A stretch of 64,000 nucleotides of DNA, from positions 21,685-85,684 of the forward strand of contig JABDDU010000003.1 in the NCBI GenBank assembly GCA_013287435.1. Reading direction: 5' to 3'. Positions 1,450 through 52,302 of this stretch are shown here, piece after piece. The notes beneath the pieces are model-generated. The model saw only the letters and a list, made by a program, of their open reading frames with translations, did not search any database and had not been told where the DNA came from. Position numbers and translations under genes: made by a program. Positions within the stretch are counted from its first letter, which is position 1. The number at the start of each line of letters is the position of its first letter. This DNA is from Verrucomicrobiota bacterium. GTDB lineage: Bacteria > Pseudomonadota > Gammaproteobacteria > Coxiellales > Coxiellaceae.

Positions 1450-2468
1450 AAACAGTTGGCATTATCGGCGGTGGCCAATTAGCACAATTGCTATCGGTAA
1501 GCGCTTATCAATTAGGCCTTAAAACGGTGTGTTTTGTTGAAGAAGAAGATTGTCCCGCAAAACGATGTAGCCCGCTTTTTCTTGGAAAATTATCTGACAA
1601 TGATGCGTTAGAAAAATTTTCCACTCAAGTGGATGTCATTACGGTTGAAAATGAAAATGTGGATATTGACACTTTAAAAAAATGTGAAAAAATAAAACCT
1701 GTTTTTCCTCATCCTGACATCATTCAAATCGCACAAGATCGTTTATTTGAAAAAAATTATTTTCAGAAATTGCTCATTCCAACGACACCTTTCTTTCCGG
1801 TTCATTGCGCCGCTGATTTAAAAAAAGAAAATGGTTTTTTAAAAACACGTCGATTGGGTTATGATGGTAAAGGACAAATTCATATAACACCGGACTCCAA
1901 TTTAACAGACGCGTGGAATTTACTGAATAAACCCGCTATTTTTGAGCATTTTATTGATTTTGAAACCGAAGTCTCACAATTGGTTGCGCGCAATAGTGAT
2001 GGCGATATCCAATTTTTTCCATTGATTGAAAATAAACATCAAGAAGGTATTTTGCGTACATCACATTTTGCCCATTTTCCTGCGCTAGAAAAAAAAGCGC
2101 AAGACTATGCGCGAACTTTGGTTGAGTCATTAAATTATATCGGCGTTTTAGCCATCGAATTTTTTGTGCAGAAAAATGAATTAATCATGAATGAAATAGC
2201 GCCACGTGTGCACAATTCAGGGCATTTAACGATTGAAGGGTGCAATGTGAGTCAGTTCGATCAGCATTTACGCGCTATTTTAAATCTTTCTCTCATAAAA
2301 CCCGCGATCATTCAATCAGTCGAAATGATCAATATCATCGGAGAATGGCCTGAAAATCTCGATCAATTTCACCATATTTATGATTATGGAAAAGCCGCTA
2401 GAAAAAATAGAAAACTGGGTCACGCTATTTGTTGCTACAAGGTAAAATCTGAATGGAACGGCGCTTAG
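1446..2468 (+). CDS. purK: N5-carboxyaminoimidazole ribonucleotide synthase PurK (ATP-grasp)
   Basis: N-terminus is [14 protein letters not shown], with ATP-grasp-type sequence and APRVHNSGH. The ATG at 1446 overlaps the purE stop (ATGA). Confidence 0.85.
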
Positions 2469-2503
2469 GAAAAATTGCGTATCTCAAATTCTTTGTACGA
2501 CAA

Positions 2504-4325: not shown

Positions 4326-4374
4326 ACCATCCATCGCCATTGCGCGATCAACTAGAGTATCAAATACAGCCTTA

Positions 4375-4917
4375 TCAATCATCATTGATTTCCTCAGACT
4401 GAATTAAATTGAGATTGCGGCCAACGCGTTTTAAATCACGCAATGCGATTTCTTTTGTTGCAACTCGCAGCGGTTTATTTTTTATAAGATAGGTGCTTTT
4501 TAAAATGTCTGTTGTTGATCTTTTGGTATGTGTCATTTCAATCACGCCATAACAAGTTTTGTAAACTCCTTCGCGACCCGTTGTCATTACTGTTAAGCGA
4601 TCAATAGGAATTTGCGAGATCACACCATATTCCGACAACATGGATTCTAAGCTAATATAATTGTATTCACCAAGACGCAACGCCTTGGCAATATACCTAA
4701 TCACATCAGAATCAAAACAAGTAGCTTGTGGATTAACATAAACACCGCGACAGGCCCGCTGCAACACATTCGTCTTAACTAAGCGGTGCAATCCTTCTGA
4801 GAACGTTTTTGCATTATCTTCTGGAAAAAATTTTGCAAGTTCGTGTTTTGTAAAGACGAAACGACCTTCTTTATCCCATTTTCGTAAAACTTGCATAGCT
4901 TGATTTTGGTTCATCAC
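4375..4917 (-). CDS. AbiEi-like (type IV TA antitoxin / COG5340-type) transcriptional regulator, with no partner gene
   Basis: The N-terminus is wHTH-like. The central segment GEYNYISLESMLSEYGVISQIP resembles the AbiEi antitoxin family. No AbiEii-like ORF follows, because the IS end lies 49 nt downstream. Confidence 0.5.
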   Translation of the reverse strand: MMNQNQAMQVLRKWDKEGRFVFTKHELAKFFPEDNAKTFSEGLHRLVKTNVLQRACRGVYVNPQATCFDSDVIRYIAKALRLGEYNYISLESMLSEYGVISQIPIDRLTVMTTGREGVYKTCYGVIEMTHTKRSTTDILKSTYLIKNKPLRVATKEIALRDLKRVGRNLNLIQSEEINDD

Positions 4918-5020
4918 ACTCTTTTATGTATACAAAAATACTAATAATTAATAGTATATCTGTATATATAAATACTTTCAAGCGGGATTTAATGGGATAA
5001 AAAAGAAAATTGCGCGGTCG

Positions 5021-6826
5021 TTAGCGCTCGCGCTTCCTTTCATTTTCCTTCAAAAACTTTTTACGTAAGCGGATATTTTTGGGTGTCACTTCCACCAATT
5101 CATCATCCGCAATAAAATCCAGCGCTTTTTCAAGCGACATCACCATCGGCGGTGTTAAAATAATATTTTCATCGGAACCGGATGCGCGCATATTTGTTAA
5201 TTGTTTTTCTTTGGTCGCATTGACCACCAAATCATTTTCGCGTGTGTGTAATCCAACAATCATGCCTTCATACACGTCGGTTTGCGGACCCACAAATAAG
5301 GATCCCCGTTCTTGCAAACCATATAATCCAAACGCGCGCGTAATACCCGCACAATTACAAATTAATACACCCCGATGACGCGATTTGATCGCTTTTGCTT
5401 TCACAGGACCGTAATGATCAAAGATGTGATGCATCACGCCCGATCCTGAGGTCAATGTTAAAAATTTCGTTTGAAAACCAATTAATCCGCGCGTGGGCAT
5501 CACGTAATCCAATCGCACACGTCCTTTTCCATCGGGCATCATATGTTTTAAGTCACCTTGACGATCCGCTAAATATTGCATGATCGTGCCCTGATCTTTT
5601 TCTTCAACATCAATAATTAATTGCTCATACGGTTCAGATAAAACGCCATCAATTTCTTTTTGAATCACTTTCGGACGCGATACCGATAACTCATAACCTT
5701 CACGTCGCATATTTTCAATTAAAATCGATAAATGTAATTCTCCGCGACCCGATACAATAAATTCATCGGATGCTGAACTTGTTTCAACACGCAACGCGAC
5801 ATTCGCAATTAATTCACGTTCTAATCGCTCGCCAATTTGTCGGCTCGTGACATATTTGCCTTCTTTTCCGGCAAAAGGTGAATTGTTGACAGAGAATGTC
5901 ATGCTGACAGTTGGTTCATCAACCGTTAATGGCGGTAACGCTTCAACCTGTTCAGGAGCGCAAAACGTATCGGATATGCGAAGATTATCAACACCGGTGA
6001 CAGAAACAATATCACCGGCTGATGCGCTTTGAATTTCACGACGCTCAAAACCAATCGTTTGAAATATTTGTAAAATACGCGCATTACGTGTTTTGCCAGC
6101 AGCATCAATTGCCACAATCGGTGCATTGGTTTTAATCGTTCCCCGTTTAACACGTCCAATGCCAATGGCACCTACATAACTCGAATAATCAATCGCGGAA
6201 ACTTGCATTTGAAATCCGCCAACGAGATCCACTTTCGGAGGGGGTACTTTATCAATGATTGTTTGAAATAATAACGACATGTCAGCGGTTTTTTTATCAG
6301 GATCGTCAGTCGCGTAGCCAAGTAATGCCGATGTATAGACAATGGGAAAATCTAATTGTTCATCCGTTGCATCCAAACTCACAAACAAATCGAATACTTG
6401 ATCGACAACCCAATGGGGTCTTGCGCCATCACGATCAATTTTATTAATCACGACAATCGGTTTTAATCCCCAAGAGAAAGCTTTTTGTGTGACGAATCGC
6501 GTTTGCGGCATCGGGCCATCGACCGCATCCACTAATAACAAAACTGAATCTACCATCGATAAAATACGTTCAACTTCGCCACCGAAATCCGCGTGACCTG
6601 GTGTGTCGACAATATTCACATGATAATCATGCCAGCGAATCGCCGTATTTTTCGCTAAAATCGTAATACCGCGTTCACGCTCCAAATCATTCGAATCCAT
6701 CATGCGTTCAGAAATTTGTGCGCGTTCACCTAAGGTGCCTGATTGTTGTAATAATTTATCGACAAGCGTTGTTTTGCCGTGATCGACATGCGCGATAATT
6801 GCGACGTTTCTAATGTGACTAACCAT
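5021..6826 (-). CDS. typA: Translational GTPase TypA/BipA
   Basis: [19 protein letters not shown] and [15 protein letters not shown]-motifs are present. The 601-aa length is typical of BipA. Confidence 0.95.
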
Positions 6827-6828: not shown

Positions 6829-7485
6829 TTAATAACCATAAATTATGCCAACACGCAGCGAAAAGGCGATTGCGCTAGGCCCAAAAACCATTGCCAAAAT
6901 CAGTAACGCACCGAGCAAATCCAGTTGAAATAATACAGGAAATCCCTGTTCAGCGGCAGTAACGACTGTTGACCCAAAAATTAAAATGGAAATATACAGG
7001 GGAAGCAAGACAATTGCCAATAATAAACCGCCTCGACGCAAACCAACGCATAAACTTGCCACAATCGCACCCTGCATGACAATAATCGGTGTTCCTAATA
7101 ATAAACTCATCATTAATATCTCGACGGCAAAAAAGGACAAATGGTACATCAACGCTAAAACTGGCGCTAATAAAATCATCGGCAAGATATAAAAAACCCA
7201 GTATATCAGCATTTTTACAGAAATAAGCGTCGATAACGATGACGGCGCAATCAACCACTGATCCAATAAACCATCCTCATAATCATCTTGAAATAACTGC
7301 GGCAACGATAATAAATTTGCCAACACAATTGCAATCCAAATAATGCCGGCACCCATGGTTTGCAATAAATGATTATTCGGCGAAATAGATAATGGAAACA
7401 GTAGACACACTAAAATAAAAAATAATAGTGGAATGAGGTAGGTCAATGGATTTCGAATAAAAAATATAAATTCGCGTTTGAACAT
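6829..7485 (-). CDS. ccmB: Heme exporter membrane protein CcmB
   Basis: 218-aa polytopic membrane protein directly downstream of ccmA. The N-terminus FIRNPLTYL and overall pattern match CcmB. Confidence 0.85.
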   Translation of the reverse strand: MFKREFIFFIRNPLTYLIPLLFFILVCLLFPLSISPNNHLLQTMGAGIIWIAIVLANLLSLPQLFQDDYEDGLLDQWLIAPSSLSTLISVKMLIYWVFYILPMILLAPVLALMYHLSFFAVEILMMSLLLGTPIIVMQGAIVASLCVGLRRGGLLLAIVLLPLYISILIFGSTVVTAAEQGFPVLFQLDLLGALLILAMVFGPSAIAFSLRVGIIYGY

Positions 7486-7605
7486 GGTGAGTTATCCGGT
7501 ATCTGTTATCAGTTATCGGTGATCTGTTATCAGTGCTCTGTTATCTGTAAAATTTTAAATCGTGCCTCTGACACTGATAACTCACACTGATAACTGATAA
7601 CTGAT
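7486..7605. repeat. ~120-bp palindromic element built from GTTATCAG / CTGATAAC and CACACT units, lying between ccmA and ccmB
   Basis: The left arm GTGAGTTATCCGGTATCTGTTATCAGTTATCGGTGATCTGTTATCAGTG is inverted relative to the right arm CCTCTGACACTGATAACTCACACTGATAACTGATAACTGA. Related arms occur at 13491-13526 and 51249-51318. Confidence 0.7.
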
Positions 7606-8138
7606 TTATGCGAAGCTATCAAAACCATTCCATCATTTTTTAAATGTTCTTGTATCACTCTTTCCAATTGCGTCACACCTTCTGCATCCAAATTCGAAAA
7701 CGGCTCATCCAAAATCCATATTTTTTTATCAGATAATTGTAATCGCGCCAATGCAACACGTTGCTTTTGTCCTTGCGATAACAGACCGCATAAGGTATTC
7801 AGATAATTTTCTAATGACCACTGTTGTAAAATAGTTTTGATTTTTTCATCCGGAAAAGCGAGATTTTCTTTCACCGTTAATTCAGACTTAATTGCCAATT
7901 GATGGCCTAAATAAAACAAATAATGATAATAATCAGATTGCGCAATCAGTTGATCATTCCAAAAAATATGACCCGATTCAGGTTGTAATAAGCCCGCTGC
8001 AATACGCAATAAACTGGATTTTCCAGCGCCATTATTGCCAACGACTTGTAATACTTCGCCGGGCGCAACCGAAAAGTGGATATTATTAAATAATGCGCGT
8101 GAGTTTCGTACGCAAGAGATATTTTTGGCTGATAGCAT
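7530..8138 (-). CDS. ccmA: Heme ABC exporter ATP-binding protein CcmA; the C-terminal ~25 codons are encoded by the palindromic element
   Basis: Walker A GNNGAGKSSLLR, signature LSQGQKQRVALAR and Walker B IWILDEP are present. The tail KSVISYQCELSVSEARFKILQITEH is read from repeat DNA. Confidence 0.85.
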   Translation of the reverse strand: MLSAKNISCVRNSRALFNNIHFSVAPGEVLQVVGNNGAGKSSLLRIAAGLLQPESGHIFWNDQLIAQSDYYHYLFYLGHQLAIKSELTVKENLAFPDEKIKTILQQWSLENYLNTLCGLLSQGQKQRVALARLQLSDKKIWILDEPFSNLDAEGVTQLERVIQEHLKNDGMVLIASHKSVISYQCELSVSEARFKILQITEH

Positions 8139-9844: not shown

Positions 9845-10477
9845 TTATTCTAGCCTCATTTTTGGTTTCGGCAATACCGTGTTTTTTGGCGATAAACAAA
9901 TACTCTCAAACCGCCTAAAATGCCGGAAGTTTTGAGCAGTAAGATAACCGGTTAATTGCATGCTACTCAAAACACCAGGATCAGGTTGTATTGAAAACTG
10001 AATAGAGTGCGCATGCATTAACTGATTCACTTGTTGTAAAGTCAACGCTGTCGTAGCAGATGCAAAATACGGATCATTGGCTGATGACAACTCTATATAT
10101 TTTCCAAACGCAACGGTTCTGGAGAGGTCGAATTTTTCATAGGTTCCATTGTCTATGTCCAGCATCAGATATTTTCCAATCGCAAAATCAACAAAGCCTT
10201 TTGTTTTAACTTCTAAAAAGTAATCGGTGCCTTTATTTTCGAGCGTTGATTGTATCAAATTAAATGCTACATGAGGTCCCTGGCGCGTCTTCGTGAATGC
10301 CGGTTTAGGACCTTGATCTGATCTCACCCAATTATTTCTCATTTTGCATACTTTGATATCAGTATATTCGTTGTATGTAGCATCTTTTGTGATTTTAAAA
10401 CGCGCACAACCTGAAAAAAGAAGCGCAATTGACGTCAAAATAAGAAATCCGAAAAATAATTTGATTTTGTGAGACAT
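9845..10477 (-). CDS. Hypothetical lipoprotein
   Basis: Lipobox LLFSGC follows a hydrophobic N-terminus. I prefer the ATG at 10477 (MSHKIKLFF). No recognisable domain. Confidence 0.55.
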   Translation of the reverse strand: MSHKIKLFFGFLILTSIALLFSGCARFKITKDATYNEYTDIKVCKMRNNWVRSDQGPKPAFTKTRQGPHVAFNLIQSTLENKGTDYFLEVKTKGFVDFAIGKYLMLDIDNGTYEKFDLSRTVAFGKYIELSSANDPYFASATTALTLQQVNQLMHAHSIQFSIQPDPGVLSSMQLTGYLTAQNFRHFRRFESICLSPKNTVLPKPKMRLE

Positions 10478-13490: not shown

Positions 13491-13526
13491 AAGTGTGAGT
13501 TATCAGTGTGAGTATCAGAGGTGCGA
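13491..13526. repeat. Single arm of the CCTCTGA-ACTGATAACTCACAC repeat family
   Basis: GTGTGAGTTATCAGTGTGAGTATCAGAGGTGCGA is the reverse complement of the arm consensus seen at 7562-7595 and 51276-51311. Confidence 0.55.
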
Positions 13527-14922: not shown

Positions 14923-16234
14923 CCATTCCCACCTGCCTAATTAACCCTGCAAAATCAGGAAATGATGTATTCACACATGCACAATCATCAATAAATACCG
15001 TATCTTTTGCGCTGTTTCCTGCAATCGCAAAACTCATGGCGATACGATGATCACCAAAACTATTAACACGGCCGCCATGGAATTCCTGCTCACCATAAAT
15101 TAAAATACCGTCATCGTACTCGATAGTTTTAATATTAAGTGCGTTGAAATTTTTTATCATTGCTGTAATTCGATCGCTTTCTTTTATACGTAATTCACGC
15201 GCACCACGCAATACCGTGTTTCCTTTTGCGGTAACTGCCGCAATAAAAATAATCGGGAATTCATCGATAGATTTTGAAATTAACTCTGATGGAATCGTGA
15301 TACCGTGCAAGGGTGCGTATTTAATTCGAATATCTGCAACCGGTTCTTCTCCAAAAAATTGGCGGTGAAATAATTCAATATCTGCACCCATTAATTTTAA
15401 AATAGTGATTATTCCTGTGCGAAAAGGATTAACCCCCACTTCTCGAAGTGTTATATCAGAATCTTTGGTAATAGCAGCAAGTACGATAAAAAAAGCAGCG
15501 GAGGAAATATCGCCAGGAATGTGTAATGCGCTCGCCCTGCCGGGCGAACTACTGAAGTTCGCCTTACCTGGCGCAGTACCAAAGTTCGCTTTATCGGGCG
15601 AACTACTGAGAAGCATTTTTTCAGTATGATCTCTGGTCGGCATTATTTCGCGAATCGTCGTTTTACCGCTTGCATACAAGCTCGCCAACAAAATGCCCGA
15701 CTTCACTTGCGCGCTTGGAATGATTACTGCGTAATCAATGCCGACTAAATTTTGATGACCAGTCATTTCAATCGGCGCGGTATTGTTTTCAGATAAATTA
15801 ATTTTTGCTCCCATTAAGCGTAACGGTTCTGCAATACGTAACATGGGTCTTTTAGACAATGATTGATCGCCAATTAAAACAGAATTAAATTTTTGCGCGC
15901 TTAATAATCCACACAACAATCGCATGGTCGTTCCAGAATTGCCGCAATTTAAGGGTTTTTTAGGTGCTTTTAATCCATGCAAACCGACACCATAAACCCG
16001 CGCCGATTTTTTTTCTGAATCAATAATAATCTCAACACCCAATGCGCGCATAATATTAATAGTGGATAACACATCATCGGACAATAAAATATTATCAATA
16101 TCAGTAGCGTAATCATTAATCGACGACAAAATAATCGCGCGGTGGGAAATGGATTTATCACCAGGAATAATAATATCGCCAGTGATTTTTTTTTCGGGTG
16201 TAATTTGAAAACGGGTGTTGGGGATTAGGTCCAT
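14879..16234 (-). CDS. aroA: 3-phosphoshikimate 1-carboxyvinyltransferase (EPSP synthase)
   Basis: PGDKSISHRA, NCGNSGTTMRLL, TRDHTEKML, PGDISSAAFF and RIKESDR motifs. Confidence 0.9.
   Translation of the reverse strand: MDLIPNTRFQITPEKKITGDIIIPGDKSISHRAIILSSINDYATDIDNILLSDDVLSTINIMRALGVEIIIDSEKKSARVYGVGLHGLKAPKKPLNCGNSGTTMRLLCGLLSAQKFNSVLIGDQSLSKRPMLRIAEPLRLMGAKINLSENNTAPIEMTGHQNLVGIDYAVIIPSAQVKSGILLASLYASGKTTIREIMPTRDHTEKMLLSSSPDKANFGTAPGKANFSSSPGRASALHIPGDISSAAFFIVLAAITKDSDITLREVGVNPFRTGIITILKLMGADIELFHRQFFGEEPVADIRIKYAPLHGITIPSELISKSIDEFPIIFIAAVTAKGNTVLRGARELRIKESDRITAMIKNFNALNIKTIEYDDGILIYGEQEFHGGRVNSFGDHRIAMSFAIAGNSAKDTVFIDDCACVNTSFPDFAGLIRQVGMDVGVENEFDKSGTL
15528..15612. repeat. Hairpin-forming repeat segment inside aroA
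   Basis: GGCGAACT-ACTGA-AGTTCGCC forms a perfect 8-bp stem, and a second AGTTCGC...GCGAACT pair follows. GGGCGAACTACTGA occurs twice. The segment encodes the low-complexity peptide SSSPDKANFGTAPGKANFSSSPGRASAL. Confidence 0.6.
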
Positions 16235-21034: not shown

Positions 21035-22342
21035 ATGCAAAAAATCGACACACTTATCCACGCACGCTGGATCGTCCCCATCATTCCTCGCCATCAAATT
21101 TTAGAAAATTATTCTATTGCCATTCATCATGAAAAAATCATTGATCTTTTATCAACAGATGAAGCGAAAAAAAAATATTCTGCCAAAAATACGGTTGATC
21201 GAAAAAATCATGTGGTGATGCCGGGATTAATTAATACGCATACACATACGCCGATGAATTTATTTCGTGGATTAGCGGATGATTTGCCATTAATGGATTG
21301 GCTGAATAATCATATTTGGCCAGCGGAACAAAAAATTATAAATGCCGAAAGTGTTTATGATGGATCACGATTGGCAATCATTGAGATGTTACGCGGCGGC
21401 ACAACCTGTTTTAACGATCATTATTTTTTCCCGAACGATATTGCCCGCGCGGCAACTGAAGCAGGAATACGCGCTTGCATTGGACACGTTATTATGAATA
21501 TCCCTAACGATTGGGCGAAAAATGAAGATGAGTATATTAGCAAAGCAAAATCGGCTTATGCGGATCGTTCTCGTGATCCACTGCTCAGTTGGACAATTGC
21601 ACCACAAGGTCCTTACACGAATTCTGATCGCAGTTTAACGCTTGCAAAAAATCTTGCTGACGAATTGAATTTACACATGCATATGCACGTGCACGAAACG
21701 CAAGCTGAACTCAATATTGATCTGAAAAATCATCACAAACGCCCGATGAAACGATTACATGATTTAGGCTTGCTAGATGAAAAATTTATTGCTGTGCATA
21801 TGGTGCATTTAACGGATGAAGAAATTGAACTGTGTGCTGAAAAAAAATTACACGTATCACACAATCCCGAATCCAATTTAAAATTAGCCAGTGGATTTGC
21901 GCCCATTGTAAAATTAATGAAAGCCGGTGTGAATGTTTGTTTGGGAACAGATGGCGCTGCCAGCAATAATGATTTGGATATGTTTGGAGAATTGCGCACA
22001 GCCTCTTTTATCGCAAAAGCACACAATCAAGATCCTACCGCATTAGATGCCATGACAACATTAGAAATGGCAACGATTAATGGTGCAAAAGCATTGGGAT
22101 TAGAAAAATACATTGGTTCAATTGAAATAGGAAAATATGCTGATGTGATTACCATTAATTTCGATCATATTTTCACACAACCGGTTTTTAATCCCATTTC
22201 ACATTTGGTTTATGCAGTGAACCGTTTGCAAGTGAGCGATGTGTTTGTTGCTGGAAAACAAGTGTTAAATGCGGGTGAGTTTGTTAAATTAGATGTTGAT
22301 GAGATTGTTGCGAAGGCAAAGATGTGGGCGGAGAAAGTGTGA
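21035..22342 (+). CDS. mtaD: Amidohydrolase of the TRZ/ATZ family (probably 5-methylthioadenosine/S-adenosylhomocysteine deaminase)
   Basis: NTHTHTPMNLFRGLADDLPLMDWL, HVHET and GTDGAASNN metal-binding motifs. 435 aa. Confidence 0.7.
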   Translation: MQKIDTLIHARWIVPIIPRHQILENYSIAIHHEKIIDLLSTDEAKKKYSAKNTVDRKNHVVMPGLINTHTHTPMNLFRGLADDLPLMDWLNNHIWPAEQKIINAESVYDGSRLAIIEMLRGGTTCFNDHYFFPNDIARAATEAGIRACIGHVIMNIPNDWAKNEDEYISKAKSAYADRSRDPLLSWTIAPQGPYTNSDRSLTLAKNLADELNLHMHMHVHETQAELNIDLKNHHKRPMKRLHDLGLLDEKFIAVHMVHLTDEEIELCAEKKLHVSHNPESNLKLASGFAPIVKLMKAGVNVCLGTDGAASNNDLDMFGELRTASFIAKAHNQDPTALDAMTTLEMATINGAKALGLEKYIGSIEIGKYADVITINFDHIFTQPVFNPISHLVYAVNRLQVSDVFVAGKQVLNAGEFVKLDVDEIVAKAKMWAEKV

Positions 22343-22390
22343 GTGCGAGTGTGAGTGTGAGTGTGAGTGTGAGTGTGAGTGTGAGTGTGA
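22337..22390. repeat. (GTGAGT)n hexanucleotide microsatellite, ~9 units, starting inside the mtaD stop codon
   Basis: GTGTGAGTGCGAGTGTGAGTGTGAGTGTGAGTGTGAGTGTGAGTGTGA, read directly from the sequence. Confidence 0.9.
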
Positions 22391-22529
22391 TCAAGTATGT
22401 TACCGATTAGCAGCGAATGGAAGCGCGAGCGCAAGCGACCGCGAAATCTACATGGAACGGTGATTGATATTAAACAAATGACAACACTGTACCTCTGATA
22501 ATATAAAAACCATCGAGGAATAACTTAAT

Positions 22530-23390
22530 ATGGATTTACCAACCAAAATCACCCTCACCGAAGTCAGTCCCCGCGACGGTCTTCAAAACGAAAAAGTAAT
22601 TATTCCGACTGACATCAAAATAAAATTTATCGAATTACTCACTGAAGCTGGTTTTCCAATCATTGAAGCAACCAGTTTTGTAAACCCCAAAAAAATTCCC
22701 GCACTCGCCGATCACGAAACAGTCATGAAAAAATTTCCGTCAACCCGTAAAACAAAATACATGGCATTAATTCCCAATGGTCAAGGCTTAGAAAAAGCGA
22801 TCGAATCCGGCTGCAGCTCTATTGCTGTTCTCACCGCCGTTTCTGAAACATTTACGCAAAAAAATATTAATTGCTCTATTGATGAAAGCTTAAATCGCAT
22901 CACAGAAATAATAAAAATAGCCAAACCCAATACTATTTTTATCCGCGGATATATTTCTTGTGTATTAGGTTGTCCGTATGAAGGTTTTATTGCGCCTGAA
23001 AATACGGCAAAAATAGCCAAAAAATTATTAGCGATGGGATGCGATGAAATTGCATTGGGTGATACGATTGGCACTGGTACACCACTAAAAGCACAAGCAT
23101 TAATTCATGCGGTAAACAAATATGTTCCCATCGATAAAATCGCCATTCATTTTCATGACACCTACGGTCAAGCAATTGCGAATATTTTTGCCTGCTTACA
23201 ATTAGGTATTTCAAAAATCGATGCTTCTGTCGGCAATTTAGGCGGATGTCCTTATGCAAAAGGTGCAACAGGAAACGTTGCCACTGAATCAGTTTTATAT
23301 TTACTAAATGAATTAAATATTGAGACTGGGGTTGATTTACATAAAGTACTCAAAGCGCGTGATTTTATTCGTGGATATTTTAAAGTGTGA
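22530..23390 (+). CDS. Hydroxymethylglutaryl-CoA lyase
   Basis: EVSPRDGLQNE, the DTIGTGTP-type motif and HFHDTYGQA. 286 aa. Confidence 0.85.
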   Translation: MDLPTKITLTEVSPRDGLQNEKVIIPTDIKIKFIELLTEAGFPIIEATSFVNPKKIPALADHETVMKKFPSTRKTKYMALIPNGQGLEKAIESGCSSIAVLTAVSETFTQKNINCSIDESLNRITEIIKIAKPNTIFIRGYISCVLGCPYEGFIAPENTAKIAKKLLAMGCDEIALGDTIGTGTPLKAQALIHAVNKYVPIDKIAIHFHDTYGQAIANIFACLQLGISKIDASVGNLGGCPYAKGATGNVATESVLYLLNELNIETGVDLHKVLKARDFIRGYFKV

Positions 23391-23400
23391 GCGCAGGTAT

Positions 23401-23550
23401 GAGTGTGAGAACGAACGTCGCGTATGATGCGTGTAATTGGGCGGAGCCGCGCGTGAAGTTTTCACGCCATACATCATGATGGATATTAATTAATTTCGAC
23501 GTTATTTGACGTGGAAATAGGTGTGAAAGTTGTGTCACGTGAAAACGGAA
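23401..23550. repeat. Left arm of a long inverted repeat flanking the 604-aa gene
   Basis: The reverse complement aligns block by block with 25597-25824, with about 1-2 mismatches per 20 nt. Confidence 0.85.
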
Positions 23551-23610
23551 CAAGCGATCCGGTATACAAACACAGTATTAAAATAATAATGCGTACTGGC
23601 CTCCAGAAAA

Positions 23611-25425
23611 TTAAGGTTTTCTCTGCGCTGAAGCCGTATGGGTCATAAGCTCCTTATTAATTTTTTTCATTTCCAAAAAAAGCTGGCCAAGCGTTCCGTT
23701 CTTTTCGGCAGGTCTGAATTTATTCTCATCGATAACACAGGGTGGATCAGATTTTAATGATTCCTCAATTGCAATAATCATTCTTTTTGTCCCATTCCAT
23801 TTTGCCTGAGCAGAAAAATACATCCCAAAAATCCCCGATGAAAAACCTCGATCATCTTTCTGATTGAATCGTCTTTCATAATTCGTCAATTTATACATCA
23901 ATTGAAATTTTAATGATTCTAATTTTTCGGCTGGCGTTGAATTCCCATTAATTTTTTTGAGATGTATTATTTCATCGTATTTTTCAGACAGCAACTTACG
24001 TTTGTCAGTTTTTTTGGAACATGCTTTTAAATCAACTTTACATTTCTCAAAAGCTTTCTGCAACTCTTGTATAACCATGGCTGCATAAGAATTTGTATTT
24101 TCTATGTTGTTATTTATGCTGGAAAATAATTTTCGTTCCAATACAAATTTTATTATATCTCGACTATCTTTTTCAAATTCAGAAAAAACATATTTTCCTA
24201 CATTAGAAAATTCCATGTTGTTATTTTTATTATAGGCGGTGATTTTTAATTCCTTGGAACCAGCATCAAGTTGACTGACAGAAAATAAAAATGTTGGAGC
24301 AAAATCAAACAATTTCGTTTTCTTAAAGTTTTTTACAAGGAAATCCGTTTCACGCCCGAACCAGACAGAGAATGCAGAGGTAATAGCAGCACCCACATCA
24401 GGATATTTTTTAGCAAGCGCTAATAATTTACCGCTATAGATATTTTCGCGTACAATTATTTCACCTACGCAACAATATATGTCGTTTTTAAAAATGATAC
24501 CCCGCATTGCTTTAATTAACGCATTGCGCATTTTTTCGTTTGTATTTGACTCTGTTAAAATCCTTTTAATTAACTCCGTTTTTTCCAATTGTACTAAAAG
24601 TACGATAAATCCGCGATCATCAATTAACTGAATCAGAGCATCTGAATTTTCGCACAATGCGCTATACGCATTTTCAAATGGTTTGCATTTTTCTTGTGCG
24701 TCTTGATTAAAGCTGGCTATTTGAATTGAAAACGAAGATCCATATTGCCCTGTTATCGCTTCATGGAGAGAATCAATATCTGAAAATTTTTTCTCACCCG
24801 CCCTAAAATTGGGATCATAGAGACACCATTGTGAACTTGTTTTATCAAAACGAATTGAACAGGTATGTCCTTCGTAGTGAATTGAAAATATTGTATTAGG
24901 TAATGAAAACACCTCTGGTTGTAACAATTGGAATAAATGATTTTTACTGAATACTCCGCCAACTGCTGCACGATAAGATATTTTTTCACCTTTTTCTGAC
25001 TCAAACCACTGAATATTATTATCGGTATCACTGAGTTGCAATAGAGTTTTTTGACTTAAGCCATCAATTTTAAAATCCGAAATTAGTTCAAGTGACACCT
25101 GATGAAAAAAAGCGTAATTTAGCGCACGTTTAAAATGAAATCCAAGAGTTTTTTCTGTCTCTGTTTTTTTAAGATTTTCATCAGGTAATTTAATCGCTTT
25201 TTTAAGTGATTCTTCACTTCCATCCCATTCAGCAATTTTTTCTAATAACGCATGCCACCAGTTCAATTTTTGGGTTGCTGCCATATACGAATGAACGATT
25301 GCTAATCCAAGGCATAACCCTCCTTTGAGATTTTTTTTCTCAGAATCGGAAAATGGTTCTCCACGATCAAATTCCATATATTTTACGAACTGATCCATCA
25401 GTTTAATCTGATCGACAAATGCCAT
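23611..25425 (-). CDS. Hypothetical 604-aa protein with an N-terminal YopT/AvrPphB-like (peptidase C58-type) cysteine protease motif set; putative secreted effector
   Basis: KGGLC(38)LGLAIVHSYM, then EGH(187)TCSIRF and WCLYD(204)PNFRAGE, resemble the Cys/His/Asp triad and the FDPNFGE-like Asp motif of the YopT family. The C-terminal ~370 aa has no recognisable domain. Confidence 0.5.
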   Translation of the reverse strand: MAFVDQIKLMDQFVKYMEFDRGEPFSDSEKKNLKGGLCLGLAIVHSYMAATQKLNWWHALLEKIAEWDGSEESLKKAIKLPDENLKKTETEKTLGFHFKRALNYAFFHQVSLELISDFKIDGLSQKTLLQLSDTDNNIQWFESEKGEKISYRAAVGGVFSKNHLFQLLQPEVFSLPNTIFSIHYEGHTCSIRFDKTSSQWCLYDPNFRAGEKKFSDIDSLHEAITGQYGSSFSIQIASFNQDAQEKCKPFENAYSALCENSDALIQLIDDRGFIVLLVQLEKTELIKRILTESNTNEKMRNALIKAMRGIIFKNDIYCCVGEIIVRENIYSGKLLALAKKYPDVGAAITSAFSVWFGRETDFLVKNFKKTKLFDFAPTFLFSVSQLDAGSKELKITAYNKNNNMEFSNVGKYVFSEFEKDSRDIIKFVLERKLFSSINNNIENTNSYAAMVIQELQKAFEKCKVDLKACSKKTDKRKLLSEKYDEIIHLKKINGNSTPAEKLESLKFQLMYKLTNYERRFNQKDDRGFSSGIFGMYFSAQAKWNGTKRMIIAIEESLKSDPPCVIDENKFRPAEKNGTLGQLFLEMKKINKELMTHTASAQRKP

Positions 25426-25492
25426 AACAACACCTCTACTCCAATATCGAGTTTTCTACATAAATTATAGTAGATAGATTACCGTTAGATTC

Positions 25493-25514
25493 TTAATAAA
25501 CTATTAATAAACTA
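25493..25514 (-). promoter_or_regulatory. Tandem 11-bp repeat TTAATAAACTA x2 (TTAA-N7-TTAA), a candidate PmrA-type response-regulator box upstream of the 604-aa gene
   Basis: Perfect direct repeat with an 11-bp period. A TATAAT hexamer on the minus strand (25464-25469) lies between the repeat and the ATG at 25425. Confidence 0.35.
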
Positions 25515-25596
25515 TTAGCAAATGCTATTTATACTTAGAATTATCAGTAGGTTAGGAAAATAATCTCGAAAAACTCTATTTTAGAAGTAAAACCCA

Positions 25597-25824
25597 GGAT
25601 CGCTTGTTTCGTTTTCACGTGACACAACTTTCACGCCTATTTTCACGTTAAATAACGTCGACATTAATTAATATCCATCGTGATGTATGGCGTGAAAACT
25701 TCACGCGCGGCTCCGTCCAGCGCAATGAATTAACATCAATCTTGATGGGCGGTGTGAAAACTCTGCGCGGTTCCATCCAATTACACGCATCGCTCCACAC
25801 ACGGTTGCGTCCGTTCTCACACTC
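25597..25824. repeat. Right arm of the long inverted repeat, containing a ~57-bp internal degenerate duplication
   Basis: GGATCGCTTGTTTCGTTTTCACGTGACACAACTTTCACGCC... is the reverse complement of 23401-23550. The arm ends in GTTCTCACACTC, abutting the metH stop. Confidence 0.85.
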
Positions 25825-28800
25825 AGCTCAACACCGGCGCTAACCATTTCTCCGCCATCTCCAACGAAATATTTTTCCGCTGTGCATAATCCGCCAATTG
25901 ATCACGATCAATTTTTCCAATCACAAAATAATCGCTTTCTGGATGCGAAAAATAAAAACCACAAACAGAAGACGCCGGCCACATTGCCAAATTATCCGTC
26001 AATGTAATGCCCGCATTTTTTTGCGGATTTAACAATTGAAATAACGCGTGTTTTTCCAGATGATCAGGACACGCAGGATATCCCGGTGCTGGACGAATGC
26101 CATAATATTTTTCTTTTATCAATGATTCATGACTTAAATTTTCTTCGGAAGAATAACCCCAATATAATTGCCTTACTTTACGATGCAAATGTTCCGCAAA
26201 GGCTTCCGCCAATCGATCACCCAATGCTTTAATCATAATACTGCTGTAATCATCCTGTTGCGCTTCAAATTTTTTTGCCAGCGCATCCACACCAATTCCC
26301 GCAGTAACAGCAAACACACCAATATAATCATTGATTCTCGTATATTTTGGCGCAATAAAATCCGCTAAACATTTATTCGCTCTGCCTGGCGGCTTTCGAT
26401 TTTGTTGTCGCAAATGATGCAGTGTTAACATTATTTCGTTACGATTATTATCATCGCAATACACTTCAATATCATCATCATTCACACTATTGGCCGGGAA
26501 AAATCCAAATACCGCATGCGCTTGCAATAATTTTTCATCGATCACATGTTGCAACATCGCTTTAGCATCATGATACAATTTCGTCGCTTCAACACCGACA
26601 ACACTGTCTTTTAAAATATCGGGAAAACGCCCCGCCAAATCCCACGCTTGAAAAAAAGGCGTCCAATCGATTTCCTGCGCAATCGGATTTAAATCATAAT
26701 TCTTTAAAATTTGAATGCCTAATTGACGAGGAATCGGCGGAACATAATGATCCCACTTTAACGGTGATTTATTCGCACGCGCATCACTCAATGAAATAAA
26801 ATCTGTTTGATGTTTTTTTCCCGCATGCAATTCACGCACTTCTTGATATTCATTTTTAATTGCTTTTGTATAATCCGGTTTTAAATTCGCATTTAATAAT
26901 TTAGAGGCAACACCAACCGCGCGACTCGCATCTTTCACATAAATAGCATCATGCTGATAGTTCGGCGCGATTTTAACGGCGGTATGTACACGCGACGTTG
27001 TGGCACCACCAATTAATAATGGCGTCGTAAAACCCAGGCGTTGCATTTCACTGGCAACAAAACACATTTCATCGAGTGACGGCGTAATTAATCCGCTTAA
27101 TCCAATCATATCGACATTTTCTTTTTTCGCCGTTTCTAAAATTTTTTCACACGGCACCATCACACCCAGATCAATCACATCATAGTTATTACATTGCAAA
27201 ACGACACCCACAATATTTTTTCCAATATCATGCACATCGCCTTTCACGGTCGCCATTAAAATTTTACCTTTCGCGCTCGCCTTCACATTATTATTTTTCT
27301 TTTCTGCTTCAATAAAAGGGATTAAATACGCAACCGCTTTTTTCATCACGCGTGCACTTTTAACGACTTGCGGTAAAAACATTTTTCCATCACCAAATAA
27401 TTCACCGACACGATTCATGCCATCCATTAACGGCCCTTCAATCACTGCTAAAGGATACGGCGCAATTTTTCGTGCTTCTTCCGCATCCTCATCAATATAT
27501 TCTGTAATACCTTGCACCAAAGCATAACTTAATCGTTCATTGACTATTTTTTCACGCCACGACAAATCTTTTTGTTGGGATTTACCATGGCTCATCACCG
27601 TTTGCGCGACTTCTAATAATTTTTCTGTTGCGTCAGGCTTTCGATTTAAAACCACATCTTCCACTTTTTCTAATAAATCTGCAGGAATATCTTGATAAAT
27701 AGGCAATTGCCCTGCATTGACAATTCCCATATCAAGACCAGCACGAATCGCGTAATATAAAAAAACCGCATGAATCGCTTCACGAACAGGATTATTGCCA
27801 CGAAATGAAAATGATACGTTACTCACGCCGCCACTGATTAATGCATAGGGACATTGTTTTTTAATGTCAGAAACTGCCTCAATAAAATCAACCGCATAAT
27901 TATTATGCGCGTCAATGCCCGTCGCGATCGCAAAAATATTCGGGTCAAAAATAATATCTTGTGGTTTGAATCCGACTTGTTTCGTTAAAATACGATATGC
28001 TCGTTTGCAAATGTCAATTTTACGATCACGTGAATCCGCTTGACCTTGTTCATCAAACGCCATCACAACGACCGCAGCACCATAAAATAATATTTTTTTA
28101 GCGCATTCAATAAATAATTTTTCACCTTCTTTTAAGCTGATTGAATTAACAATGCCTTTGCCTTGCAAACATTTTAATCCTGCTTCAATCACCGACCATT
28201 TCGATGAATCCACCATAATCGGCACACGCGAAATATCAGGCTCACTCGCCACCCTATTTAAAAATGTTGTCATTTCAACTTCAGAATCGAGCATCGCTTC
28301 ATCCATATTAATATCGATGATTTGTGCGCCCTGCTCGACTTGTTGACGCGCAACTTCTAACGCAGCTTCGTAATTTTTCTCCAAAATTAATTTTTTAAAT
28401 TTTGCAGATCCCGTCACATTAGTGCGTTCACCCACATTAATAAAATTACTGTCAGGATAAAGAGTCAGCGGCTCCAATCCACTTAATCGACAATAAGGCT
28501 TAATTTCAGGGATTTCACGCGGTTTACAATTTTTTATTTTTTCCGCAATCGCTTTAATATGTTGCGGCGTTGTACCACAACAACCACCGGCAAAATTAAT
28601 AAATCCATTTTGTGCAAATTCAAAAACCAGTTCACTCATTTTTTCGGGCGTTTGTTCATAGTCTCCCAATTCATTTGGTAAACCCGCATTCGGATAAACA
28701 CTGACATACGTATCTGCAATTTTTGATAAGGTTTGTAAATACGGGCGCATATCTTCAGCACCTAACGCACAATTAATCCCAACCGCAATGGGTTTCGCAT

Positions 28801-29494
28801 GCATCACGGAATGCCAAAACGCTTCAATCGTTTGTCCCGATAATGTTCGCCCGCTCGCATCTGTAATCGTGCCTGAAATCATGATCGGCAATTCGATGTG
28901 ATGATCATCAAAATATTTTTTAACCGCAAAAATAGCGGCTTTTGCATTTAATGTGTCAAAAATCGTTTCAATTAAAATAATATCAACGCCACCACGCACC
29001 AAACCATCAACCGCTTCTGTATAGGCAGCAACTAATTCATCAAAAGAAATATTGCGTGCACCGGGATTATTCACATCCGGTGAAATGGACGCGGTTCGAT
29101 TGGTGGGACCGATTGCACCCGCCACAAAACGCGGTTTTTCCGGCGTTTTTTGCATTATTTCATCGCAGGCGGCGCGCGCTAATTGGGCGGCTTGATAATT
29201 TAATTCGGTTGCGAGATGGCTTAATTGATAATCGGATAATGCAATGGACGTTGCACCAAACGTATTGGTTTCAATAATATCAGCGCCGGCTTGCAAATAA
29301 GCGTGATGAACCGCTTGAATAATTTTAGGTTGTGTTAAACATAATAAATCATTATTTCCCTTTAAAAAAACAGGATGATCTTTAAATTGTGCGCCACGAA
29401 AATCACTTTCCGTAAGACGGTACGTTTGGATCATTGTACCCATGCCGCCGTCAATAATAAGAATGTTGGAAGCAAGTTGTTTTAATATTTGCAT
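25823..29494 (-). CDS. metH: Cobalamin-dependent methionine synthase
   Basis: 1223 aa. It contains Hcy-binding, pterin-binding, B12-binding ([10 protein letters not shown]) and AdoMet-activation domains. Confidence 0.95.
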
Positions 29495-38996: not shown

Positions 38997-40187
38997 TTAA
39001 TGCGAATTAAGAACTGAATTTTTTGCATCCGCTCGCCAACATTCACTCGCACCTGATAGTTCGGCTCTTAATTCGCATTTTAATTCAGAAATAAATGTTG
39101 GGATATTTCTGGCAATTTGTTTTTTTTGAAGATGAGTTGTTCCTTCCATAAATTCCCAACAAAATACATCGCGATACGCTTTCATCAACCAGGGATTTTC
39201 TATTAATTGATCCAAGGTACATAAATCTACGCATTGTTGAATGACCGTTTCCGCCGCATTGGTCGCATTCGCTTTTGCTAACGACACATCCGCCGACACC
39301 AGTGGATCTCTATCCACTTTTTTTGCGGCATTATGAAGAATATGTCTCGCAGTTTTTAATAATTGATTTAATGTATAAAATTGTGATTTAAAACACGTAA
39401 AATTTTCTTGATGTAATTGGTACGTTATATCGTAGACCGCTTGTGCCTGACCAATGGCTAATGCGCCCACACCTGTTCGTAATCGGTTAAATACTTTTAT
39501 AACTCCTAATAAACCATTTTCACAAGCGGATAAATGATGACCTAGAATTTGTTCGTGCGGTATAGAGGTTTGATTAAATTGCATCGCTGCTATTTGTGCA
39601 CCTCGCAACGCGTACATGGGTAATGGTATTTTCTCGATTGTAGTATCTTGCAAAATATCAGGCGTTAACCAAATCGCGCGAATTGCAATGGGACTTCTGG
39701 CAAAACGTGCTAATACAACCCCTGTTTCGGCAACCACTCCATTTCCAAAAAAACATTTTATGCCTTCAAGAAAATAATTTTTATTATTTTTAATTAATTG
39801 GGTTTCTATTTCGCTGGCATCCGATCCCTTTTTAGGTTCTGTTAAAGCAAAGAATGTACGCATTTTATTTTCTTTAATCATCCGATAGAATCGATCAATT
39901 TGTTCGGGTAAGCCTAATTCACGCAGCATTAACCCTGACAACGAAGGGCCAGGACTTGCCAATAAAACTCCCGGGTCGCCATACGACAATGCTTCCAAAT
40001 ATTCAGTACGTTTAATGGCCGTACTATCACAGTCTGATAGTAAATAATTAATAACGGGTAGATCACTGTATTTTAAAATGGATTGTGGATTCTGATCTAT
40101 TTCAAATGCAATACGTCGAAAATCATTTGAAAATGAAAAATATTGTTCACCATATCTATTTTCAGGACTTATATAATAAACGTTCAT
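38997..40187 (-). CDS. Acyl-CoA (or acyl-ACP) dehydrogenase family flavoprotein; the last ~27 codons are MITE-encoded
   Basis: ACAD signature FALTEPKKGSDASE. I prefer the ATG at 40187 (MNVYYISPEN) because it removes the 41-nt overlap. The tail CELRAELSGASECWRADAKNSVLNSH is read from the repeat at 39000-39078. Confidence 0.75.
   Translation of the reverse strand: MNVYYISPENRYGEQYFSFSNDFRRIAFEIDQNPQSILKYSDLPVINYLLSDCDSTAIKRTEYLEALSYGDPGVLLASPGPSLSGLMLRELGLPEQIDRFYRMIKENKMRTFFALTEPKKGSDASEIETQLIKNNKNYFLEGIKCFFGNGVVAETGVVLARFARSPIAIRAIWLTPDILQDTTIEKIPLPMYALRGAQIAAMQFNQTSIPHEQILGHHLSACENGLLGVIKVFNRLRTGVGALAIGQAQAVYDITYQLHQENFTCFKSQFYTLNQLLKTARHILHNAAKKVDRDPLVSADVSLAKANATNAAETVIQQCVDLCTLDQLIENPWLMKAYRDVFCWEFMEGTTHLQKKQIARNIPTFISELKCELRAELSGASECWRADAKNSVLNSH
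39000..39078. repeat. 79-bp MITE-like palindromic element with ATGCGAATTAAGAGC terminal inverted repeats
   Basis: ATGCGAATTAAGAACTGAA ... TTCGGCTCTTAATTCGCAT. A second copy lies at 45631-45818 and a degenerate half copy at 9274-9311. Confidence 0.8.
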
Positions 40188-51248: not shown

Positions 51249-51318
51249 AGTAATCAGTTATCAGTAAAATGCTACTCGCGCCTCTGACACTGACACTGAT
51301 AACTCACACTGATCACTG
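51249..51318. repeat. Copy of the GTTATCAG / CCTCTGACACTGATAACTCACAC palindromic repeat family
   Basis: TAATCAGTTATCAGT ... CGCGCCTCTGACACTGACACTGATAACTCACACTGATCACTG lies between the tsaD start and the mdh stop. Confidence 0.6.
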
Positions 51319-52302
51319 TTATATTAACCCCAACTCTTTTACCGCTTTACATTCACCGCGCAACTCATCCAGTGTCGCTTTTAATTTCGCTTCACCAAAA
51401 GCATTGTGTTTGATATTTTCTACGACACATACTTTTCCGTTTTCAGTACGACAGGGAAATGAAAAAATTAATCCTTCATCAACACCATATTCACCTTGCG
51501 ATGCGCGACACATCGAAAATGCCTTATTTTTAGGTGTTTCGTGATGCAATGATTTTAATCCATCAATAATGGCGTTCGCAGCTGATGCCGCTGACGATGA
51601 ACCACGCGCTGCGATGACAGCTGCTCCGCGTTGCTGAATGGTTGGAATAAAATAGTCCGTAAACCATTTTTCATCCTTGATCACTTCCACGGCAGATTGA
51701 CCATTAATTTTTGCATGATAAAAATCAGGAAATTGCGTTGACGAATGGTTGCCCCAAATAATCATCTGATCAATATCAGAAACAGCGACACCCGCTTTGT
51801 GCGCTAACTGTGAAACCGCGCGATTTTGATCGAGCATCGTCATTGCAAAAAAACGATCCTGTGGAATATCTTTGGCATGATTCATAGCAATTAAACAATT
51901 GGTGTTACAGGGATTTCCCACCACAAATATTTTCACATCCGATGCTGCATTGTTATTAATCGCCTGCCCTTGTGTTTTAAAAATTCCACCATTTATTTTT
52001 AATAGTTCCGAGCGTTCCATGCCTTGTTTACGCGGCACTGAACCGATTAATGCGGCATAGTTAATATCTTTCATGGCAACAGTGGGATCGTCTGTCATCA
52101 CAATATTATTTAATAACGGAAATGCACAATCTTCTAGTTCCATGGCAACGCCTTTTAATGAAGGCAATGCGGGTGTGATTTCTAATAAATGCAAATCCAC
52201 TTTAACATCAGGGCCGAAAACTTGACCGGATGCTAGACGAAATAATAAGGCGTAACCGATTTGGCCAGCGCCGCCGGTGATAGCGATTTTAATTGTTTTC
52301 AT
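51319..52302 (-). CDS. mdh: Malate dehydrogenase
   Basis: [17 protein letters not shown]ossmann N-terminus and IWGNHSSTQ motif. The ATG at 52302 overlaps the cysQ stop (ATGA). Confidence 0.9.

Follow-up and report, generated by a model that had tools for sequence, protein, structure and literature searches.

The locus and its inverted arms

This work concerns a 2.4-kb insert in a stretch of 64,000 nucleotides (nt) from the bacterial assembly GCA_013287435.1 (contig JABDDU010000003.1, positions 21,685 to 85,684), hereafter the window, which probably represents the shell of a class 3 element of the Y1/HUH transposase group, with a passenger gene in the place of its transposase. The insert separates two convergent genes. 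The first of them encodes an HMG-CoA lyase-like protein (22530-23390, plus strand; Pfam HMGL-like, E 1.6e-49), and its 3' end reads AAA GTG TGA, that is, it contains the GTGTGA motif of this genome, whereas the second is metH (25823-29494, minus strand), encoding a B12-dependent methionine synthase in which five Pfam MetH domains are recognised. A single gene lies inside the insert, an open reading frame (ORF) of 604 amino acids (aa) located in the ORF list at 23611-25425 on the minus strand and read in the same direction as metH. The first-pass annotation of this DNA had described it as one AT-rich gene unaccompanied by a transposase, a description that stands, taking into account that no other ORF is present between the arms, that the segment between them has a GC content of 33% (38% in the window and 46-47% in the arms), and that it shows no similarity to Y1 transposases.

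The left arm (23400-23562, plus strand) is a short form of 163 nt, delimited by repeat search, BLAST and alignment with the arms of a second copy described below, and the right arm (25595-25825, minus strand) is a long form of 231 nt containing 1.5-2 tandem arm units, as obtained from repeat search and gapped alignment. In the repeat search, both arms share an inverted core of 123 nt (23438-23560 and 25597-25719) with 94% complementarity, followed outwards by a second collinear block of 27 nt (23426-23452 and 25765-25791; 89%) and by an outer block of 18 nt (23400-23417 and 25808-25825; 94%). When the left arm was compared by BLAST with the whole window, the partner arm was retrieved with an E value of 1e-50 and no other comparable match appeared. 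The inverted repeats that had been reported at 23401-25824 are therefore real. The metH stop codon forms the final 3 nt of the right arm (TGA GTG TGA GAA CGG on the minus strand), and the left arm begins 10 nt past the lyase stop at 23390.

The right arm carries a tandem duplication at 25663-25769 (plus strand), in which 25663-25707 and 25725-25769 are 76% identical. This duplication had been noticed earlier with a period of 57 nt, and the period has to be corrected to 62 nt. According to the gapped alignment, the left arm corresponds to a fusion of the outer and the inner unit, i.e., to a deletion of 62 nt, and thus the long form is better read, from its sequence, as the probable ancestral state, with the left arm as the deleted one.

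Both arms are enriched in short boxes. The sequences G[CT]GTGAA or GCRTGAA appear 3-4 times per arm against a background of 0.7 per kb elsewhere in the window, an enrichment in line with the TTTCACG/CGTGAA motifs already pointed out in the first-pass annotation. These boxes form an array with a spacing of about 11 nt that includes one perfect TCACGTGA palindrome. A hairpin scan located in the left arm the structure GCGTGAA-GTT-TTCACGC, with a stem of 7 bp and preceded by CGGAGCCGC (23451-23467, plus strand), and its copy in the right arm (25690-25706, plus strand). This hairpin is identical in 4/4 arms, those of the window and those of the second copy, and it is a candidate for the structure that a Y1 transposase would recognise.

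Searches outside the window with the cassette or its parts gave no matches in Rfam at permissive thresholds (23300-25900), in a plasmid collection (neither by blastn of the whole cassette nor by tblastn of the Y1 protein P0009, introduced below), in viral contigs scanned with the arm hairpin pattern, or in a genome collection, lacking the source genome, that was searched with an exact 25-mer of the arm.

A second pair of arms encloses a transposase remnant

A search for further copies of the arms, as had been suggested for this locus, was carried out on metagenome contigs with a motif-based scan, which returned 26 loci. Twenty-five of them lack arm similarity and are chance matches. The remaining one, L095 (contig Ga0207113_1022), contains two arms of 188 nt (3477-3664 and 3874-4061) that are 99% complementary and enclose 209 nt. 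Over the 123-nt core, the left arm of the window is 94.3% identical to the right arm of the window and 95.9% identical to the L095 sequence, the right arm of the window is 93.5% identical to L095, and both L095 arms are 100% identical to each other.

The Logan contigs of the run SRR8433713 hold the protein P0157 (423 aa), a neighbour of the L095 arms, together with the cargo of the window (L001) and the lyase (L005). L095 has a GC content of 38%, equal to that of the window, and (GTGTGA)n repeats are common to both. Since the run, the GC content and the repeats coincide, the arms most likely occupy two or more unrelated loci of one genome. They are thus multi-copy, as expected for a mobile element (two pairs), while the version with the cargo is single.

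The 209 nt enclosed by the L095 arms read ATG-SNDTFPSAYFITFTTYGSWVHADE and continue, out of frame, with YIIEQQGEKMAWVL and a stop codon. The N-terminal piece, MSNDTFPSAYFITFTTYGSWVHADE, matches the Y1 transposase P0007 with 84% identity (E 2e-5), whereas the C-terminal sequence YIIEQQGEKMA, too short for statistics of its own, aligns with YIIEEQGKKMA of P0009 and YVIEEQGEEMA of P0010. The remnant corresponds to the first ~26 and the last ~14 codons of a Y1 gene and retains the motif YIIEQQ. Judged by these residues, what lies between the L095 arms is an internally deleted pseudogene of a class 3 Y1 transposase.

This arm pair is located between the gene of an orphan protein of 423 aa (2047-3318, minus strand) and a pair encoding a MazE/AbrB-type antitoxin and a PIN toxin (4172-4864, plus strand). 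The orphan, P0157, retrieved only itself among 5.8e9 protein clusters.

Inner sequences and the replaced segment

The similarity between the window and L095 continues beyond the arms. On the left, an inner leader (23563-23602, plus strand) with the sequence ..ACAGTATTAAAATAATAATGCGTACTG is homologous to the sequence located upstream of the Y1 gene in L095 and in three other contigs (L112, L113 and L116). It aligns with the L095 sequence ..CCGGTATTGAAATAATAGTGCGTACTG at 36/42 positions, and the box ..CGGTATTGAAA.. that it contains is also present in L112, L113 and L116. This leader was probably the promoter region of the former transposase gene (tnpA). On the right, pairwise alignment indicates that the inner trailer CAGTA..GGAAAAT..AAAACCCAGG (25546-25594, plus strand) is partly conserved after the tnpA stop in L095. 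Because leader and trailer are side-specific and each is found on its correct side, the window locus descends from one complete element and not from two solo repeats.

Homology to L095 is lost about 12 nt ahead of where the tnpA start codon would be and is regained a few nt past the position of its stop. The replaced segment (~23603-25545, ~1.94 kb) contains the cargo ORF and some 120 nt of AT-rich upstream sequence (25426-25545, minus strand), in which there is a weak promoter-like site, and it is oriented opposite to the lost tnpA. To judge from the sequence that is left, the window locus is a derivative of the class 3 family and not an autonomous member of it.

The Y1 transposase family linked to the arms

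With P0007 as the query, exhaustive searching by phmmer retrieved 474 cluster representatives at E<1e-3. Nine of the ten full-length members scanned (164-222 aa) pass the threshold of the Pfam family Y1_Tnp (IS200-like). In NCBIfam, members stay below the thresholds for IS200 TnpA and for the repetitive extragenic palindrome (REP)-associated tyrosine transposase, with scores of 22-38 bits against the cut-off of 55 of NF033573. The family is characterised by the motifs RTNHVH, W[TA] and Y[VI]xxxQ and by a long conserved N-terminus. Among 52 matches of at least 150 aa, HuH is present in 30, of which 26 have NHVH and 23 have WT or WA after it; the tyrosine motifs seen are YVIEEQ, YIIEEQ and YVIERQ.

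A class 3 of TnpAY1 proteins has been defined with the signature NHVH, W[TA] and YV[VI][AENY]EQ and a length of ~178 aa (Quentin et al. 2018, PMC6006769, Table 1). These proteins are bordered by secondary structures of an atypical kind in a REPtron-like arrangement, and the survey included 24 of them (PMC6006769). At the level of sequence motifs, the transposases linked to the arms have the signature of class 3, not that of class 1 or 2.

Three intact relatives with readable contigs were found, and 3/3 have long inverted arms (62-157 nt). In L113, the gene (139-732) lies between arms of 130 nt that are 92% identical (17-146 and 742-871). In L114, whose gene ends at 3669, the arms (2907-3063 and 3701-3857) have 157 nt with 94% identity and consist of repeated TTTCACGC..CTGACGCGCGCG units (..GCGCGCG) in both orientations. 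In L116, the gene (1840-2361) is located between a PIN toxin gene and ruvC, with arms of 62-66 nt that are 98-100% identical, two tandem units being upstream and one inverted unit downstream. One-sided tandem duplication of arm units is thus common, since L114 and L116 show it as the right arm of the window does, and this suggests that amplification of arm units is a regular feature of the element family.

Short boxes are all that the arms have in common across lineages, namely GGAG[AC]CGCGC[AG]TGAAG and ..AAAAC[AC]CGGTATT[GA]AA.., the second of which is located upstream of the gene, next to the inner border of the left arm. When the arms are aligned locally, z values are 3-5 between lineages and 11 for L112 versus L113.

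Some observations on these loci deserve to be recorded. The arm units of 55-90 nt are repeated in tandem two or three times on one side at L114:2860-3063, L114:3689-3858 and L116:1610-1790. The Y1 element of L116 adjoins an antitoxin-PIN pair, as does L095. P0007 itself is encoded on a contig of 500 nt (L112, 159-389) where the gene call reads an in-frame TGA as W; this Y1 gene is truncated after ~60 codons and constitutes a pseudogenised copy from a different sample. A word-indexed search with the L095 piece returned a single candidate and missed P0009, with which it shares a 10-residue word, so its result is not evidence against an intact paralogue. A 12-nt match (GTGTGAGCGCAG) between the L116 arm and the left flank of the window was not significant (E 0.56) and was left unused.

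The box AAAACACGGTATTG lies upstream of the Y1 gene of L112, with slight variants in L095, L113, L116 and the cassette of the window. Exact copies of 13-15 nt of AAAACACGGTATTG(A) are also present in the window at 9872-9885, 15209-15221 and 48821-48835, all of them on the minus strand. The copy at 9872 lies directly upstream of a -35/-10 pair that resembles a promoter, and that at 48821 is followed by TTGAAATATTATTTGAAAATAATCTC, which resembles inner sequences of the cassette. The box might represent a promoter or a regulator site common to these loci, or debris of the element.

The outer ends and the native GTGTGA hairpins

The outer halves of the inverted repeat have 18 nt, the left one (23400-23417, plus strand; TGAGTGTGAGAACGAACG) being a motif that recurs in the window at 47473-47487 and in runs of hexamers such as 22347-22388, and the right one (25808-25825, minus strand), identified from the repeat pair, having the metH stop codon as its last 3 nt. 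It had been stated that both outer ends read GAGTGTGAGAACG, which is true, but this 13-mer has a third site at 47474-47486 (chance expectation 0), and it is probably not an element end, as hexamer hairpins occur elsewhere in places where there is no element.

Runs of GTGTGA are indeed found at several positions of the window. One run of seven units (22340-22388) has its start within the amidohydrolase stop codon; the runs 47036-47053 and 47479-47496 flank a tsaE-like ORF, the latter going on as ..GTGTGAGAACGA, which is the third match to GAGTGTGAGAACG; and further runs are present at 60119-60130 and 63040-63051. An element-free hexamer hairpin is located between convergent ORFs at 63025-63051, and another, (GAGTGT)3-loop-(TCACAC)3, between nuoM and nuoN at L095:500-556, where the upstream context GTGAGCG..ATGAGTGTGAG is as in the left flank of the window. 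At the ends of the L095 arm pair, no GTGTGA-type motif was found.

Thus, the outermost 14-18 nt are probably, on the evidence of these repeats, halves of a native (GTGTGA)n hairpin and not the termini of an element. This native hairpin would have ended both convergent genes, the metH stop included, and the Y1-derived element would be nested in its loop. Read in this way, the TG..CA ends provide no evidence for a transposon of the DDE type.

Many genes have runs of up to seven GTGTGA units directly on their stop or start codon, the stop often being provided by the TGA of a unit, and hairpins of the type (GTGTGA)n-loop-(TCACAC)n occur at two intergenic places, which looks like a genome-specific REP-like family. 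We know of no described equivalent of this hexamer family.

The cargo gene

The cargo protein gave no significant match in Pfam (one SNARE match is far below the threshold), NCBIfam, PADLOC or a sequence-profile search of the PDB. Three homologues were found among 5.8e9 protein clusters, with 52%, 37% and 38% identity over the full length, and in the alignment a Cys-His-Asp triad, C38 (GLCxG), H187 and D204 (YDPN), is invariant in 4/4 known members. Structural models indicate an N-terminal domain of ~260 aa similar to papain-like cysteine proteases, followed by a helical C-terminal part; the AlphaFold model has a pLDDT of 68 for the full protein, and a pLDDT of 76 and a pTM of 0.76 for residues 1-270. 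The best fold matches in the PDB are lymphostatin, an MCF-like effector, viral-tegument-like (VTD) deubiquitinases (DUBs), M48, Josephin and USP, all of them weak (E 3e-3 to 0.05, probability 0.7-0.99, TM 0.3-0.4). It is a reasonable inference from these models that the cargo may be a secreted effector of the cysteine protease/DUB-like type.

The loci of the three homologues (L002-L004) have no arms and belong to unrelated contexts, that of L002 being located between an M3 peptidase gene and rpiA. Since the homologues sit without arms, the arms are not part of the cargo gene family.

Proposed origin of the cassette

Taking all this into account, we propose with good confidence that the cassette is a class 3 Y1/HUH shell, of the REPtron or TIRtron kind, in which the transposase was replaced by a passenger gene. 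The layout of the family is a gene for a Y1 transposase of ~170-200 aa between long, hairpin-rich inverted arms, and in the window the transposase ORF would have been exchanged, almost exactly from start to stop, for the 1.9-kb segment in opposite orientation. By analogy with IS200/IS605 and with the REP-associated tyrosine transposases (RAYT) and their REPs, the cognate Y1 enzyme would bind the hairpin GCGTGAA-GTT-TTCACGC and the G[CT]GTGAA boxes on single-stranded DNA. By the same analogy, it would cut and rejoin without duplicating the target, so that the cassette could be moved only in trans. The element, or an ancestor of it bearing the transposase, would have settled within the native (GTGTGA)n hairpin between the convergent genes, and a precise excision, or an empty site, would be expected to leave the lyase joined to metH through TGAGTGTGAGAACG..CGTTCTCACACTCA.

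With a divergence of 4-6% between the arms and no other copy found except a dead one, the cassette has most likely become a fossil that no longer moves. Its lasting effect would be that a gene for a probable secreted protease or deubiquitinase-like protein has been placed downstream of metH. With regard to the order of events, our guess leans towards a cargo swapped in at the lyase-metH site, a cargo that arrived already inside the shell being the less favoured option. The suggestion of the first-pass annotation that this is a non-autonomous mobile cassette carrying an accessory gene is thus retained with respect to the arms, which belong to a mobile family, and to the lack of a transposase of its own, but the foldback type that was invoked is not, as the sister copy and the relatives enclose Y1 genes.

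Several facts weigh against this proposal. As far as we know, biochemical work on class 3 enzymes does not exist, and the mechanism is drawn by analogy. Neither metH nor the cargo was found near the lyase in any of 80 related loci, the best lyase being 58% identical, which prevents an empty-site comparison, and at 90% identity each of the three proteins (lyase, metH and cargo) forms a cluster of its own. The many lyase relatives at an equal distance include metagenome-assembled genomes of Legionellales and Coxiellaceae. Just one cargo-bearing copy and two pairs of arms are known, with no third copy of the arms in the window. As no Y1 similarity was detected in the window, either by tblastn of 150 family members or with Pfam, the link to the transposase depends on L095. 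In addition, the DNA likeness of the arms across lineages is reduced to short boxes, their homology being mostly architectural, and the class 3 foot, a 5' CnGA tetranucleotide at the flanking structures, is matched loosely: CGGA precedes the GCGTGAA hairpin by 5 nt in the window and in L095, CTGA is found before CGCGCGCG in L114, and L112 and L113 have GGAGAC in its place. The sharing of short boxes only would be expected in the case of co-evolution between arms and enzyme, which has been described for REPtrons (PMC6006769) and TIRtrons (PMC3733652).

Alternative explanations

A bolder version of the proposal, which we consider improbable, is that class 3 Y1 shells act as gene carriers, i.e., as frames with an exchangeable ORF that are moved in trans by the cognate transposase. 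In the case of the cassette, it is equally improbable that it is a mobilisable vehicle of a protease/DUB-like effector gene that became inserted in the native hairpin. If shells did work as carriers, the near-exact exchange of one ORF for another would hint at a specific process and not at random illegitimate recombination.

It could also be argued that two independent solo repeats of the arm type, REP-like or similar to miniature inverted-repeat transposable elements (MITEs), were inserted in inverted orientation around a resident gene, a complete element having never existed. The repeats associated with class 3 enzymes and RAYTs can spread as solo units in some genomes (PMC6006769), and short intergenic repeats abound in the genome studied here. 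However, the left leader and the right trailer are side-specific and have the same configuration as in L095, solo copies of the arms are absent from the 64-kb window and from the 5.2 kb of L095, and the borders of the replaced segment nearly coincide with those of the tnpA ORF in L095. We concede to this explanation a slight probability.

Slimmer still are the chances of an invertible switch, which had been put forward in the first-pass annotation and in which recombination between the 94%-identical arms would flip the cargo, changing its expression or creating heterogeneity. From general knowledge, inverted repeats of ~120 nt that are nearly identical suffice for occasional RecA-dependent inversion, and the short-read assembly breaks inside the arms, but an assembly is expected to break in this way at any repeat that exceeds the k-mer length (repeat collapse), and the breaks do not point to two orientations. 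Furthermore, no invertase or recombinase is encoded among the neighbours (gyrA, amidohydrolase, lyase, metH, MTHFR and uvrB), the upstream region of the cargo lies inside the segment, so orientation is not expected to gate expression, and what the arms of the sister copy surround is a dead gene for a transposase instead of a switchable promoter.

To a similarly small degree, the arms might be host regulatory palindromes without a mobile origin, either an array for a factor that binds TCACGTGA/TTTCACG or bidirectional terminators. The array of motifs spaced by ~11 nt, with its perfect TCACGTGA palindrome, and the fact that each arm adjoins the 3' end of a gene, both genes being convergent, would agree with such a role. 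Against this, no Rfam family is matched, one weak terminator-like site alone was found, on the strand that is not used, the folding of each single arm is unexceptional (z -0.9 and -2.0), and the same arms flank a transposase pseudogene in L095.

The least probable explanation, a structure of the DDE type (composite transposon, foldback transposon or two MITEs) moved for instance by the DDE_Tnp_1 transposase encoded in the window at 2618-4258, has in its favour the long terminal inverted repeats and the TG...CA outer ends, but these ends lie in the native hexamer motif, no target-site duplication is seen at any plausible ends in the window (flanks AGGTA / GCTCA) or in L095 (flanks CTCAAG / GTGCGC), no sequence of the arms recurs around the DDE gene, and the sister and related copies enclose Y1 genes. 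Ends of the Tn7/Mu type (TG..CA plus an array of binding sites) were discarded as well, taking into account that a 5-bp duplication is lacking and that the sister copy holds a Y1 gene.

Comparison with known systems

Returning to the shell with a replaced transposase, its closest counterparts are the class 3 TnpAY1 elements (PMC6006769). The linked family has NHVH, W[TA] and Y----Q, its proteins measure ~170-200 aa and their conserved N-terminus is extended, and the position of the gene is flanked by element-specific inverted repeats that bear structures, in the window as well as in L095, L113, L114 and L116. The differences are that the copy of the window has a passenger of 604 aa and no transposase gene, that its arms are long (160-230 nt) and were found at two loci in the available sequence instead of being present in hundreds of copies, and that the CnGA foot is matched loosely in the window.

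TIRtrons, which contain a gene for a terminal inverted repeat (TIR)-associated enzyme (TIRYT), are also similar, in that a tyrosine (Y1) transposase gene lies between long TIRs and not between canonical GTAG REPs (Di Nocera et al. 2013, PMC3733652); some of their repeats are self-complementary, in dimers or clusters (PMC3733652). TIRYTs have been assigned to class 2, with 20/26 in subclass 2.1, which has a helix-turn-helix (HTH) tail, and a GGGGWSAS box is present in most of the flanking repeats (PMC6006769). In contrast, the enzyme linked to the window is of class 3, the boxes are GCGTGAA and GGAGNCGCGC, and the copy of the window contains a cargo.

With the REPIN/RAYT system (Bertels & Rainey 2011, PMC3116915), the cassette shares the condition of non-autonomous inverted-repeat DNA that is thought to need a Y1 transposase in trans, and the L095 copy, with two arms and 209 nt, resembles an oversized REPIN. 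Nevertheless, REPINs have ~100 nt, tens to hundreds of copies, no genes and GTAG feet, and RAYTs have Y---NP in place of the Y----Q of the family linked to the window.

Elements of the IS200/IS605 type have an HUH/Y1 enzyme and hairpins near their ends, do not generate target-site duplications, and include derivatives without tnpA. Unlike the window and L095, with inverted arms of 120-190 nt, they have short, non-identical subterminal hairpins. Their enzymes (class 1.1 in PMC6006769) have Y---Q instead of Y----Q, and the linked proteins fall below the IS200 cut-off of NCBIfam.

Finally, in the TnpAREP-prochlorosin loci of picocyanobacteria, Y1 loci are physically associated with accessory genes (bioRxiv 10.1101/2020.03.09.984088), but there the transposase is kept beside the cargo, whereas in the window the cargo takes its place between the arms; the authors of that work withdrew their own causal claim (bioRxiv 10.1101/2020.03.09.984088).

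Y1 genes with inverted REP-like or TIR arms have therefore been described before, and the definition of class 3 dates from 2018. For a class 3 shell with a passenger in the place of the transposase, a limited literature search gave no precedent.

Implications

To our knowledge, class 3 Y1 transposases constitute a barely studied branch of the HUH enzymes, and nothing is known about what they move. The 474 cluster representatives at E<1e-3 indicate a family far larger than the 24 members of the 2018 survey. The inverted arms around its members are unusually long in one lineage, and one shell devoid of transposase holds a conserved protease-like gene instead. REPtron-like elements are at present regarded as gene-free or domesticated; if such shells were mobilisable in trans, these elements would offer a route for moving accessory or effector genes. 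Even as a fossil, the cassette would illustrate the way in which two housekeeping genes came to have a rare gene between them. The GCGTGAA hairpin and the array of boxes provide defined DNA substrates for a first biochemistry of class 3 enzymes.

Other repeats and mobile DNA in the window

The window contains other repetitive sequences. At 45667-45775, a near-perfect palindromic insert of 109 nt splits a repeat of ~80 nt that has an uninterrupted copy at 38999-39078. This insert folds at -34.4 kcal/mol (z -7.3), a value equalled by 0/200 shuffles, and has the appearance of an inserted MITE or REPIN-like unit with no relation to the arms. Intergenic repeats composed of octamers of the GTTATCAG/CTGATAAC type and GTGTGAG pieces are located at 7480-7610, 13492-13526 and 51276-51321, and they include an inverted pair of 35 nt that is 91% identical.

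Besides these, a 546-aa ORF at 2618-4258 (plus strand), with a DDE_Tnp_1 domain (E 7e-17), corresponds to an insertion sequence (IS) element unrelated to the cassette. GC-rich REP-like palindromes (..AGCGCTCGCGCT.. / ..CGCTAACGCGAGCGC..) are found in the intergenic regions at 5009-5041, 22415-22447, 55611-55654 and 56549-56592, one of them adjoining the longest run of hexamers.

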